Below are positions 38,901 to 41,900 of a stretch of DNA of 64,000 nt, one piece after another. Positions within the stretch are counted from its first letter, which is position 1. Every line of letters starts with the position of its first letter. Location of the stretch: the NCBI RefSeq assembly GCF_045037415.1, contig NZ_CP173438.1; one strand, written 5' to 3'. Made by a program: the position numbers. The stretch comes from Escherichia coli. GTDB lineage: Bacteria > Pseudomonadota > Gammaproteobacteria > Enterobacterales > Enterobacteriaceae.

Positions 38901-41900
38901 GGCAAATATCTCTCGATACCGCAGAATTTCCGAGTGAATGATATTCAATTGGATAATACTCATCTTGCTTATAAATTGCGCGGCATCCAAATCTCCGCCG
39001 GGAATGCTGTCTCCTTTGTGGCGCTGACTAACATTGAGATGAAGCGTGCGTCGCTGGAGTTACACAACAAACCGCAACATCTTTTTATGCGTAATATCAA
39101 TGTGATGCAGGAATCCTCAGTTGGACCAGCATTGAGCATGAACTTTGACATGCGCAAAGACGTTCGAGGCGTGTTTATGGCGAAAAAAGAAACACTGCTG
39201 TCTCTTGCAAATGTTCATGCGGTGAATGAAAAAGGGCAAAGCTCCGTCGATATCGACAGGATTAATCACCATATTGTTAATGTGGAAAAGATTAACTTTA
39301 GATTGCCGGAACGGAGAGAGTAGATTTGCGACCATTCCTGGAAAAATGGAGTCATACTTAGGAACAATGCTACTGCAATCCACAACGAAGCGGCGTAACA
39401 TCACAAGTAATTCAGTAATCAATTCAGGGTAATTGATGCTGGCGAAAAAAATCGAACAAGCTATAATTCAGCAACCATTTTACAGGTGGATGAAATAATG
39501 ACGAATTTAAAAGCAGTTATTCCTGTAGCGGGTCTAGGGATGCATATGTTGCCTGCCACTAAGGCGATTCCCAAAGAGATGCTACCGATCGTCGACAAGC
39601 CAATGATTCAGTACATTGTTGACGAGATTGTGGCTGCAGGGATCAAAGAAATCCTCCTGGTAACTCATGCGTCCAAGAACGCGGTCGAAAACCACTTCGA
39701 TACATCTTATGAATTAGAATCTCTCCTTGAACTGCGCGTGAAGCGTCAACTGCTGGCGGAAGTACAGTCCATCTGTCCGCCGGGCGTGACCATTATGAAC
39801 GTGCGTCAGGGCGAACCTTTAGGTTTAGGCCACTCCATTTTGTGTGCGCGACCTGCCATTGGTGACAACCCATTTGTCGTGGTACTGCCAGACGTTGTGA
39901 TCGACAATGCCAGCGCCGACCCGCTACGTTACAACCTTGCTGCCATGATTGCACGTTTCAACGAAACGGGCCGCAGCCAGGTGCTGGCAAAACGTATGCC
40001 GGGTGACCTCTCTGAATACTCCGTCATTCAGACTAAAGAGCCGCTGGATCGTGAAGGTAAAGTCAGCCGCATTGTTGAATTTATCGAAAAACCGGATCAG
40101 CCGCAGACGCTGGACTCAGACATCATGGCCGTAGGTCGCTATGTGCTTTCTGCCGATATTTGGCCGGAACTGGAACGTACTCAGCCTGGTGCATGGGGAC
40201 GTATTCAGCTGACTGATGCCATTGCTGAGTTGGCAAAAAAACAAGCAGTTGACGCAATGCTGATGACTGGGGACAGTTACGACTGCGGAAAGAAAATGGG
40301 TTATATGCAAGCGTTTGTGAAGTATGGGCTGCGTAACCTGAAGGAAGGGGCGAAGTTCCGTAAAGGTATTGAGAAGCTGTTAAGCGAGTAACAAATTCCT
40401 GACTGGAAGTGTCGGTCAGTAAGTAATTAAAAACGGCAGTGAAGATTCATAGCATAAGTTTTGCTCATTGAATCTCACTGCCGTTGTCTTTTTTATAAGT
40501 ACAATAAAAACAGCATGTTAGCTTGCAATCATAGTTCAAATTTTTCCAGGATTTTCCTTGTTTCTACAGCTGTTTGGTAAGACAATTAGCGTTTGAATTT
40601 TTCGGATTTGGCACGAGTGGGTTACGCTCGTCACATCGTGGAAATGTACGCAGTGCTCTGGTAGCGGTTAAGCCAGGGGCGGTAGCGTGCATTAATGCAT
40701 CTATTAATCAAATCTGGAGCAGTCTATTTCACAGCATGCTCTCTGGCTATATGGAATAAAAAAGTGAAGATACTTGTTACTGGTGGCGCAGGATTTATTG
40801 GTTCTGCTGTTGTTCGTCACATAATAAATAATACGCAAGATAGTGTTGTTAATGTCGATAAATTAACATACGCCGGAAACCTGGAATCACTTGCAGATGT
40901 TTCTGATTCTGAACGCTATTTCTTTGAACATGCGGATATTTGTGATGCAGCTGCAATGGCACGGATTTTTGCTCAGCATCAGCCGGATGCAGTGATGCAC
41001 CTGGCAGCTGAAAGCCATGTTGACCGTTCAATTACAGGCCCTGCGGCATTTATTGAAACCAATATTGTGGGTACTTATGTCCTTTTAGAAGCGGCTCGGA
41101 ATTATTGGTCTGGTCTGGATGATGAAAAGAAAAAAAACTTCCGTTTTCATCATATTTCTACTGATGAGGTGTATGGTGACTTACCCCATCCGGATGAAGT
41201 AAATAGCAATGAAACGTTGCCGCTATTTACGGAAACGACAGCATACGCGCCAAGTAGTCCATATTCTGCTTCTAAAGCTTCCAGCGATCATTTGGTTCGC
41301 GCATGGAAACGTACTTATGGTTTACCGACCATTGTGACTAATTGCTCGAACAACTATGGTCCTTATCATTTCCCGGAAAAGCTTATTCCACTGGTTATTC
41401 TTAATTCACTGGAAGGTAAGGCATTACCTATTTATGGCAAAGGAGATCAGATCCGCGACTGGTTGTATGTAGAGGATCATGCTCGAGCGTTATATACCGT
41501 CGTAACCGAAGGTAAAGCGGGCGAAACTTATAACATTGGTGGACACAACGAAAAGAAAAACATCGACGTAGTGTTCACTATTTGTGATTTGTTGGATGAG
41601 ATAGTCCCGAAAGAGAAATCTTACCGCGAGCAAATTACTTATGTTACCGATCGTCCGGGACACGATCGCCGTTATGCGATTGATGCTGAGAAGATTGGTC
41701 GCGAATTGGGATGGAAACCACAGGAAACGTTTGAGAGTGGGATTCGTAAAACGGTGGAATGGTACCTGTCCAATACAAAATGGGTTGATAATGTGAAAAG
41801 TGGTGCCTATCAATCGTGGATTGAACAGAACTATGAGGGCCGCCAGTAATGAATATCCTCCTTTTTGGCAAAACAGGGCAGGTAGGTTGGGAACTACAGC

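Follow-up and report, generated by a model that had tools for sequence, protein, structure and literature searches.

The JUMPstart/ops element is the textbook signal that loads the anti-termination factor RfaH, a recognised virulence regulator, onto RNA polymerase ahead of the colanic-acid and O-antigen operons of Escherichia coli, and JUMPstart is reportedly the 39-bp element of Hobbs and Reeves from 1994. The same 12-nt ops class is found on the non-template strand in the leaders of waaQ (rfaQ), hlyCABD, kps region 3, and F tra. An identical GGCGGTAGCGTG is carried by rfaQ, tssH, and c4518, whereas hly and kps have the ops variants GGCGGTAGCATG and GGCGGTAGCATA and are spaced differently from their first genes; none of these loci lies in the DNA analyzed here. 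Group 1 capsule (K30-type) loci contain a galF-JUMPstart region upstream of wzi, so that JUMPstart precedes a wza-wzb-wzc-type export operon beside the O-antigen locus (PMC6128206). Bases 3–8 of ops are needed for RfaH recruitment, which is abolished in vitro by the substitutions G5A or G8C, and T11-G12 induces the pause (Zuber 2018, PMC5995543).

Binding of RfaH at both types of surface-polysaccharide operon has been described in strain CFT073, where ChIP-seq gave a signal at the O-antigen (wzx) ops in the wild type (Hustmyer et al. 2022, PMC9765446, text and Data set S2). The wza ops was RfaH-bound only once H-NS/StpA silencing was lifted (delta-hns delta-stpA); in wild-type cells the RNA polymerase signal at wza was below background, no RfaH signal was present, and the locus was not transcribed, with H-NS binding the yegH-wza region and covering the wza promoter (PMC9765446). 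The RfaH signal at the wzx and wza ops was absent in delta-rfaH, and both CFT073 ops sites read GGCGGTAGCGTG, in the UTR and on the non-template strand (PMC9765446). Colanic-acid transcription is also treated as RfaH-dependent in Stout 1996, as cited in PMC9976346, and in Navasa 2014, as cited in PMC9765446.

The DNA analyzed here (the window) is a 64,000-nucleotide segment of an E. coli chromosome carrying yegH, wza-wcaM, galF, an O25-family rfb cluster, gnd, ugd, wzzB, and his, and this O25-family strain probably represents an extraintestinal pathogenic lineage. Unlike group 1 capsule strains, in which the colanic-acid cluster is replaced, the window keeps this cluster, ending in wcaM. An earlier note on this DNA had placed a motif of ~39 bp before wza and again before rmlB (rfbB), and its coordinates and gene context proved correct, with both motifs on the + strand. 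The window itself shows the sequence, family membership, and strand of the motifs, and where the O-antigen copy lies with respect to the rfb start. The two elements and the ops sites within them are as follows.

16060..16098, + strand: JUMPstart, colanic-acid (wza) copy, CAGTGTGTTGGTAGCTAAAAGGCCAGGGGCGGTAGCGTG; RF01707 45.4 bits, full model
16087..16098, + strand: ops GGCGGTAGCGTG, wza copy, exact match; expected RNA polymerase pause at U11, position 16097
40651..40689, + strand: JUMPstart, O-antigen (rfb) copy, CAGTGCTCTGGTAGCGGTTAAGCCAGGGGCGGTAGCGTG; RF01707 52.9 bits
40678..40689, + strand: ops GGCGGTAGCGTG, rfb copy, exact match; expected pause at 40688

When the whole window was searched with the Rfam JUMPstart model RF01707 (gathering score, the curated cut-off, of 35 bits), these two sites had E-values of 4.4e-7 (wza) and 2.9e-9 (rfb), with the matches covering model positions 1–38 of 38 and coinciding exactly with the motif coordinates. 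The 39-mers match each other at 31 of 39 positions, and their 3' 18 nt, GCCAGGGGCGGTAGCGTG, are identical. This 18-mer is the longest exact word common to the two intergenic regions (659 bp and 372 bp), for which our own arithmetic gives a chance expectation of ~4e-6. Both elements end in GGCGGTAGCGTG upstream of a polysaccharide operon and in the same orientation, and the alignment to the ops consensus that the earlier note had proposed gave zero mismatches to the 12-nt GGCGGTAGnnTG at either site. The ops copies and the downstream genes all lie on the + strand, which is the non-template strand of both operons, and both copies carry every base required for recruitment and pausing (bases 3–8 and T11-G12; Zuber 2018). 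The word GGCGGTAGCGTG occurs exactly twice in the 64 kb on both strands. Exact GGCGGTAGnnTG is likewise confined to these two sites, both in sense-strand operon leaders, against ~0.1 expected by our own arithmetic in 128 kb of two-strand sequence, and none of the remaining GGCGGTAG 8-mers in the window has TG at positions 11–12. Each element also contains a GGTAGC direct repeat (16069 and 16090 at wza; 40660 and 40681 at rfb) and an internal 5-bp hairpin, CUGGU/GCCAG at rfb and UUGGU/GCCAG at wza, the latter with a G-U wobble at both end pairs. A contig scan with the pattern GGTAGCN{8,18}GGCGGTAG proved too loose, with unrelated phyla among the matches listed, and its loci were left out. Both 39-mers are genuine JUMPstart/ops copies, and their biology is already known.

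The O-antigen leader can be placed on a mapped transcript by comparison with the rfb (O16) leader of K-12 MG1655, which occupies the same galF-rfbB locus. The two leaders are identical at 304 of 387 positions and the intergenic region is 372 bp in both. There is no difference in the ops or the 3' 18 nt, and the promoter block and the surroundings of the start site are conserved; JUMPstart differs at two positions in its 5' half, whereas the downstream cargo is O16 in K-12 and O25-family in the window. The K-12 start site lies upstream of the motif (PMC6131387, supplementary file 4), and its homologous position in the window was assigned through an ungapped conserved block. The features of this region are given below.

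40432..40494, + strand: galF terminator-like hairpin and U-run, identified from its fold, separating galF from the rfb promoter
40558..40586, + strand: probable hexamers of the rfb promoter, TTGTTT-17-GACAAT, as seen in the sequence that precedes the mapped start
40595, + strand: rfb transcription start (a G), transferred by homology from MG1655 2113231 (reverse), SMRT-Cappable-seq, rfbB-rfbD-rfbA-rfbC
40764..51416, + strand: O25-family O-antigen operon rfbBDAC-wzx-glycosyltransferases, 10.7 kb, 35% GC, target of RfaH loaded at 40678–40689; assigned from composition and the annotation of a genome with a 100% identical galF-rfbB intergenic region

From the transferred start it is 56 nt to JUMPstart and 83 nt to ops, and the resulting 5' UTR is 169 nt long, with the rfbB (rmlB) GTG at 40764, 74 nt after the end of ops. 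The outcome that the earlier note had named as fatal to its prediction, transcription starting downstream of the ops motifs, thus fails at rfb. The block 40538–40610 hardly varies among six O-antigen loci, and the rfb JUMPstart is retained across six E. coli O-antigen loci that begin with different genes; homology among serogroups stops exactly at 40689, the last base of ops. CFT073 (O6) has the same galF-proximal leader and JUMPstart ahead of wzx, with an identical ops and an RNA-seq-inferred transcription unit that starts 67 nt upstream of it, but its sequence diverges right after ops, and its first gene, wzx, is 71 nt away compared with 86 nt for rfbB in the window. The O25-specific part of the operon falls to 31% GC, and low-GC DNA such as this 35%-GC operon is the kind that H-NS coats. 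The promoter hexamers match the consensus weakly and were missed by the standard scan. The galF hairpin is highly stable (−30 kcal/mol, z −7.3, with 0 of 200 shuffles as stable); it was missed by a simple terminator scan that allowed loops of ≤8 nt.

The colanic-acid leader is nearly identical to that of CFT073, from which it differs at few positions. This leader is carried by roughly 4800 E. coli genomes. The wza-wcaM ops is identical in the two strains and equally far from wza (−190 in CFT073, 191 nt in the window), while at two positions in the 5' half of JUMPstart, 16066 and 16080, CFT073 has A and the window G. A further difference is that wza and wzb are annotated as pseudogenes in CFT073, whereas wza, wzb, and wzc are intact ORFs in the window. 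The features of this locus are given below.

15619..16277, no strand: yegH-wza intergenic region, 659 bp, which holds the promoter region and leader of wza and, facing the other way, the promoter and leader of yegH; ends taken from the annotation of a 100%-identical genome
15944..15971, + strand: best sigma-70-like wza promoter candidate, TGGAGA-16-CATAAT, the sole site passing the standard scan; predicted start near 15978
16278..39323, + strand: colanic-acid operon wza-wcaM, 23 kb, 52.8% GC, presumed target of RfaH loaded at 16087–16098; from ORFs, the annotation of matching genomes, and composition

The earlier note had described a long, very AT-rich leader of ~590 bp before wza. Its AT-richness holds (64.6% AT against 50.9% for the window), but its length does not, as the 659-bp region also accommodates the promoter and leader of the divergent yegH (the K-12 yegH start site 2137862 maps to window position 15658, − strand). 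The transcribed wza leader probably spans ~300–400 nt, and the figure of 590 bp overstates it. The wza ATG lies at 16278, 179 nt after the end of ops. The candidate promoter is conserved in CFT073 and has one substitution in MG1655, and at relaxed threshold all sigma-70-like wza candidates lie upstream of 16060; between ops and the start codon, no sigma-70-like site was found at either wza or rfbB. A wza start site has no entry among the K-12 SMRT-Cappable-seq rows listed (PMC6131387), and the literature searched gave no coordinates for one. It looks unlikely that all wza transcription starts downstream of ops, because the interval from ops to ATG lacks a sigma-70-like site and because RfaH ChIP signal requires transcription through ops. 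From the promoter-like matches and the CFT073 ChIP data, we infer that the wza ops lies inside the transcript.

Upstream of wza, a PGAP "hypothetical protein" at 15819–15968 (− strand), weighed as another possible content of the AT-rich region, was set aside as a probable over-call: it is 49 aa long, unnamed, and missing from some annotations. The RcsAB box is said to follow the consensus TaAGaatatTCctA, attributed to Wehland and Bernhard in 2000, and the wza upstream region contained no match to this consensus within three mismatches. The invariant-core pattern TAAGNNNNNTCNNA matches at 15780–15793 (TAAGAAATATCGCA), although with nine such matches in the window against 5.9 expected, its frequency is near chance. 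Within the operon there are long untranslated gaps, including a REP-filled one of 468 bp, in which Rho could act.

The prediction that both operons depend on RfaH is supported, in agreement with the published RfaH ChIP-seq at the homologous sites of CFT073; the rfaH gene itself is located outside the window. At the colanic-acid operon this action is conditional, since the promoter is normally silent, being H-NS-bound and Rcs-activated. We consider it very probable that JUMPstart and ops load RfaH and thereby permit full-length transcription of the wza-wcaM and O25 rfb operons. According to the mechanism, which we take together with RfaH binding from the literature, RNA polymerase would start upstream, transcribe into the leader, and pause at ops U11 (16097 and 40688 in the window), where the exposed non-template GGCGGTAG would form a small hairpin and so recruit RfaH. 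Once recruited, the factor would stay on the polymerase, exclude NusG, and suppress pausing, termination by Rho, and the elongation blocks that H-NS imposes. It may also bridge the polymerase to a ribosome, which would help the first genes here because the start codons of wza and rfbB (the latter a GTG) both lack an obvious Shine-Dalgarno sequence. The expected outcome is full-length transcripts of the 23-kb wza-wcaM operon and of the 10.7-kb, 35%-GC O25 rfb operon, with loading that would be constitutive at rfb and would matter at wza only after initiation is switched on by Rcs activation or by relief of H-NS silencing. Intrinsic terminator-like sites are not enriched inside the two operons compared with shuffles (24 vs. 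24.1 expected and 19 vs. 16.4), and the signals overridden by RfaH therefore cannot be named from sequence. The two sites leave current understanding unchanged, and their value is one of correct annotation: both mark RfaH control points of two long surface-polysaccharide operons, and the ops sites are natural mutation targets for uncoupling O-antigen or colanic-acid synthesis from RfaH.

Other explanations of the two motifs were weighed against this reading. Chance resemblance, for which nothing speaks beyond both motifs being intergenic, is rejected on the exact counts, the Rfam E-values, and the 18-nt shared word, and we give it practically no credence. It is unlikely, too, that the wza copy is functionally marginal, with RcsAB and H-NS setting colanic-acid expression at initiation and ops adding little. 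The silent, H-NS-covered wza promoter of wild-type CFT073 fits such a view, as do the 52.8% GC of the operon, unlike typical AT-rich RfaH targets, and the lower JUMPstart score of this copy (45.4 vs. 52.9 bits). However, RfaH loads at the CFT073 wza site once the promoter fires, an operon of 23 kb that contains an untranslated gap of 468 bp is the type of unit that needs processivity, and the reports of Stout and Navasa, as cited in the two papers above, treat its transcription as RfaH-dependent. Conservation points the same way: no change in ops or in the 18-nt 3' end separates the three strains compared, against 22 differences in the 441 bp upstream. For the rfb copy, we find it highly improbable that the element is kept chiefly as a recombination anchor, marking the left boundary of O-antigen cassette exchange, and not for regulation. 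Whether rfbB, wecB, an IS, or an ATP-grasp gene comes first, homology does extend from galF as far as the final base of ops and no further; megablast matches in ~2000 genomes start at query position 34, and among the matches listed that have a first gene other than rfbB, the end falls at query 295–298, at most 3 nt from the end of ops (window 40686–40689). This pattern is nevertheless what a shared regulatory leader with differing cargo would produce, a consequence and not a competing function; an anchor would leave the near-identical motif at wza, waa, hly, and kps unexplained, and RfaH binding was measured directly at the homologous CFT073 site.

The 39-mer might instead act mainly as RNA, with the 5-bp JUMPstart hairpin of the nascent transcript regulating in place of, or alongside, the DNA ops. 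In Rfam, JUMPstart is classed among the cis-regulatory RNAs and has a hairpin that both copies can form, conservation of the 27 nt preceding ops exceeds the needs of a 12-nt ops, and the minimum-free-energy fold of the rfb leader has a stem built from the same two strands as that hairpin, one base off the Rfam register and inside a longer stem. The stem is only 5 bp, however, and the hairpins differ by a single C-to-U that keeps G-U pairing, with no compensatory change; neither leader fold is significantly more stable than its shuffles (z −1.69 and −0.85), and the published mechanism requires just the 12-nt ops read as non-template DNA. We regard a mainly RNA-based role as quite unlikely and retain RfaH loading at the DNA ops as the very probable function of both copies. 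Beyond this function, the 179 nt that follow ops at wza contain one difference among the three strains, compared with the 22 found upstream. Conceivably, but with very low probability, this near-invariant leader and the non-ops part of the 39-mer (the hairpin and the first GGTAGC) carry a second, undescribed function, for example as an RNA element aiding 30S or RfaH-ribosome loading on the Shine-Dalgarno-less wza start, which the lineage-specific G/G at 16066 and 16080 might tune.

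Scanning the whole window against Rfam at gathering thresholds (RF01707 cut-off, 35 bits) recovered two JUMPstart elements, 39-nt sequences that precede polysaccharide operons and whose last 12 nt form ops, the RfaH recruitment site. The matches span the complete model and their coordinates are exactly those proposed in the earlier note. The elements and the genes they precede lie on an E. coli chromosome as follows (rfbB being the rmlB of the earlier note):

16060-16098, + strand: JUMPstart, wza copy, CAGTGTGTTGGTAGCTAAAAGGCCAGGGGCGGTAGCGTG (sequence read; RF01707, 45.4 bits)
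16278-39323, + strand: colanic-acid operon wza-wzb-wzc-wcaA...wcaM (gene order)
ends at 40391, + strand: galF
40651-40689, + strand: JUMPstart, rfb copy, CAGTGCTCTGGTAGCGGTTAAGCCAGGGGCGGTAGCGTG (sequence read; RF01707, 52.9 bits)
40764-51416, + strand: O-antigen genes rfbB-D-A-C, wzx, and glycosyltransferases

The two 39-mers are the same at 31 positions, and their 3′ 18 nt are identical. Across both strands of the 64-kb window GGCGGTAGCGTG occurs exactly twice, and the looser GGCGGTAGnnTG finds the same two sites and no others. On these occurrence counts and Rfam scores the motif pair is therefore confirmed, far beyond chance. Both elements carry all of the sequence-level features of JUMPstart and ops, and the pair is a correct reading of biology already known, the same elements having been described at the same loci in K-12, CFT073, and many other strains. 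According to Zuber et al. 2018 (PMC5995543), the ops element is a consensus pause signal at which RNAP pauses at U11; bases 3-8 are required to recruit RfaH, and the pause-inducing dinucleotide T11-G12 is common to the E. coli RfaH targets that have been validated. Every base required of ops is present in both window copies, and RfaH recruitment at both sites is predicted for this strain. The GGCGGTAG 8-mer is found at four further sites (5920, 23096, and 28871 on the + strand, 4445 on the − strand), all without TG at positions 11-12. Two of these ops-core sites fall inside colanic-acid genes on the coding strand (+; 23096-23107 in wcaD and 28871-28882 in wcaI); in CFT073, none of the catalogued intragenic ops-like sites bound RfaH.

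The earlier note predicted RfaH-dependent antitermination of both operons, and named transcription starts downstream of ops as evidence against it. For rfb, the start transferred from K-12 lies upstream. An MG1655 SMRT-Cappable-seq table places a start site for rfbB-rfbD-rfbA-rfbC at 2113231 (reverse; PMC6131387), which pairwise leader alignment carries to window position 40595, a G within an ungapped, almost invariant block. JUMPstart follows this position after 56 nt, ops after 83 nt, and the rfbB GTG after 169 nt. In CFT073, an RNA-seq-derived transcription unit begins 67 nt upstream of the same O-antigen ops. Together, the start-site mapping transferred from K-12 and the CFT073 unit support transcription of the rfb copy. 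A strong terminator-like hairpin (40432-40494, +; −30 kcal/mol, z −7.3) and then a U-run follow galF, yet the K-12 long reads include galF-initiated transcripts that continue into rfbB (PMC6131387); the rfb ops is thus also reached by some polymerases from galF promoters.

Six E. coli galF-to-first-gene regions, with rfbB, wecB, an IS transposase, or an ATP-grasp gene as first gene, were aligned. All six keep the galF terminator, a promoter block that hardly varies, and JUMPstart, and they diverge right after the last ops base (40689/40690), where the cassette starts. Among the megablast matches listed with a first gene other than rfbB, alignments end at query 295-298, at most 3 nt from the ops end at 40689. 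A shared regulatory leader ahead of exchangeable O-antigen cassettes is a familiar picture, and service as a recombination anchor, considered as a rival function, was treated as a consequence of that arrangement. The window shares its galF-rfbB intergenic region, at 100% identity, with strains that have an O25-family flippase annotated in the downstream cluster.

Before wza, the earlier note described a very AT-rich leader of about 590 bp. Its AT-richness holds (64.6% vs 50.9% for the whole window), but the stretch is a 659-bp intergenic region (15619-16277) shared with yegH. It begins at 15619 because yegH, diverging from wza, has its ATG at 15618 (−), and it also houses the yegH promoter and leader (K-12 start site 2137862, window 15658). 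The sole site passing a standard sigma-70 scan is TGGAGA-16-CATAAT at 15944-15971, with a predicted start near 15978; a perfect TATAAT at 15863-15868, lacking a usable −35, was read from the sequence as a second candidate. With relaxed thresholds all sigma-70-like candidates still map upstream of 16060, leaving the stretch from ops to the wza ATG without any. Either candidate start would probably give a transcribed leader of about 300-400 nt, motif included, within the shared 659-bp region. A 49-aa “hypothetical protein” placed by some RefSeq annotations at 15819-15968 (−) runs antisense through the wza promoter region and across the candidate promoter; it is probably an over-call in AT-rich DNA. 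A candidate Rcs operator is TAAGAAATATCGCA at 15780-15793 (+), about 500 nt before the wza ATG; it fits the invariant core of the RcsAB box and does not vary among the window, CFT073, and MG1655, but that core pattern does not stand out statistically (9 matches vs 5.9 expected).

In CFT073, too, the wza ops is GGCGGTAGCGTG; it lies on the non-template strand within the UTR, 190 nt away from wza (PMC9765446). The window's copy is identical and equally distant (191 nt), and the two leaders are nearly the same. When CFT073 lacks H-NS and StpA, sigma-70 peaks are seen ahead of wza and RfaH ChIP signal arises at wza-wcaM, a signal absent in ΔrfaH (Hustmyer et al. 2022, PMC9765446). Because RfaH loads only onto polymerase that is passing through ops, an active promoter would place the wza ops within the transcript, and the CFT073 ChIP signal supports transcription of this copy. 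In wild-type CFT073, the locus shows RNAP signal below background and no RfaH signal, with H-NS over the promoter region (PMC9765446). Given this silence under H-NS, the AT-richness is best attributed to a promoter region silenced by H-NS and activated by Rcs, and not to the leader. By this comparison, RfaH control of the colanic-acid operon is conditional on initiation. In papers citing Stout 1996, colanic-acid transcription is said to work through a JUMPstart-RfaH mechanism (PMC9976346), and Hustmyer (PMC9765446) cites Navasa 2014 for the control of colanic acid by RfaH in K92.

Upstream of wza, the sequence agrees fully with strain Ecol_AZ146 (100% identity), and about 4400 complete genomes match it at 95-99%. 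When the window, CFT073, and MG1655 were aligned, the 441 bp upstream of the wza JUMPstart contained 22 variable positions, its 5′ half two (16066 and 16080, G in the window vs A in both other strains), and its 3′ 18 nt none, while the 179 nt after ops (16099-16277, +) differ once, by a T-run indel at 16158, which suggests constraint on the post-ops leader. Regulatory work by the JUMPstart hairpin in RNA, beyond or instead of ops, seems improbable. Rfam models JUMPstart as such a hairpin, and a 5-bp stem is possible in both copies; however, the only stem difference between them is a C-to-U change that keeps pairing as G-U, and the leader folds are of ordinary stability (z −1.69 and −0.85). Positions 16066 and 16080 are unpaired in the hairpin, and with G at both the Rfam score is still above cut-off. 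The present results offer no support for a role of the 5′ 27 nt beyond ops.

Once recruited at ops, RfaH keeps NusG off the polymerase, lessens pausing and Rho-dependent termination, and links the polymerase to the ribosome, as established for the NusG/RfaH family. RfaH also counter-silences H-NS/StpA filaments (Hustmyer 2022, PMC9765446). Loaded at ops, it would oppose both Rho-dependent termination and these filaments along both operons, a mechanism that the operon anatomy fits in its GC content, untranslated gaps, and Shine-Dalgarno sequences, none being evident before wza (…gataaataaacaATG) or rfbB (…ggaataaaaaaGTG). GC content is 35% across the rfb operon and 31% in its O25-specific part (44221-51416, +), vs 49% for the whole window; the 31% is typical of horizontally acquired O-antigen cassettes and H-NS-bound DNA. 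The 23-kb colanic-acid operon (52.8% GC) has untranslated gaps of 128, 80, 104, 55, and 468 nt. The last (34953-35420, wzxC-wcaK) holds three tandem naRNA4/REP-type repeats (35038-35301, −; 67-73 bits) and is a plausible site of Rho-dependent polarity for RfaH to override. Neither operon is enriched in intrinsic-terminator-like sites over shuffles, and no specific terminator could be named; this agrees with RfaH acting mainly against Rho and H-NS, yet is no evidence for it. Within the colanic-acid operon, the 104-nt gap separating cpsB from cpsG contains an algC RNA motif (30598-30647, +; RF02929, 78 bits vs cut-off 33.8) immediately before the phosphomannomutase gene.

Beyond the glycosyltransferases, the + strand carries gnd, ugd, and wzzB; the his operon, on the − strand, opens with a histidine operon leader/attenuator (62721-62844, −; RF00514, 131 bits). 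Two tandem SIB antisense RNA/Ibs type I toxin-antitoxin loci lie between mdtA and yegL:

334-476 and 662-804, − strand: SIB RNAs (Rfam RF00113, 136.5 and 143.5 bits)
about 349-405 and 677-733, + strand: Ibs toxin CDSs
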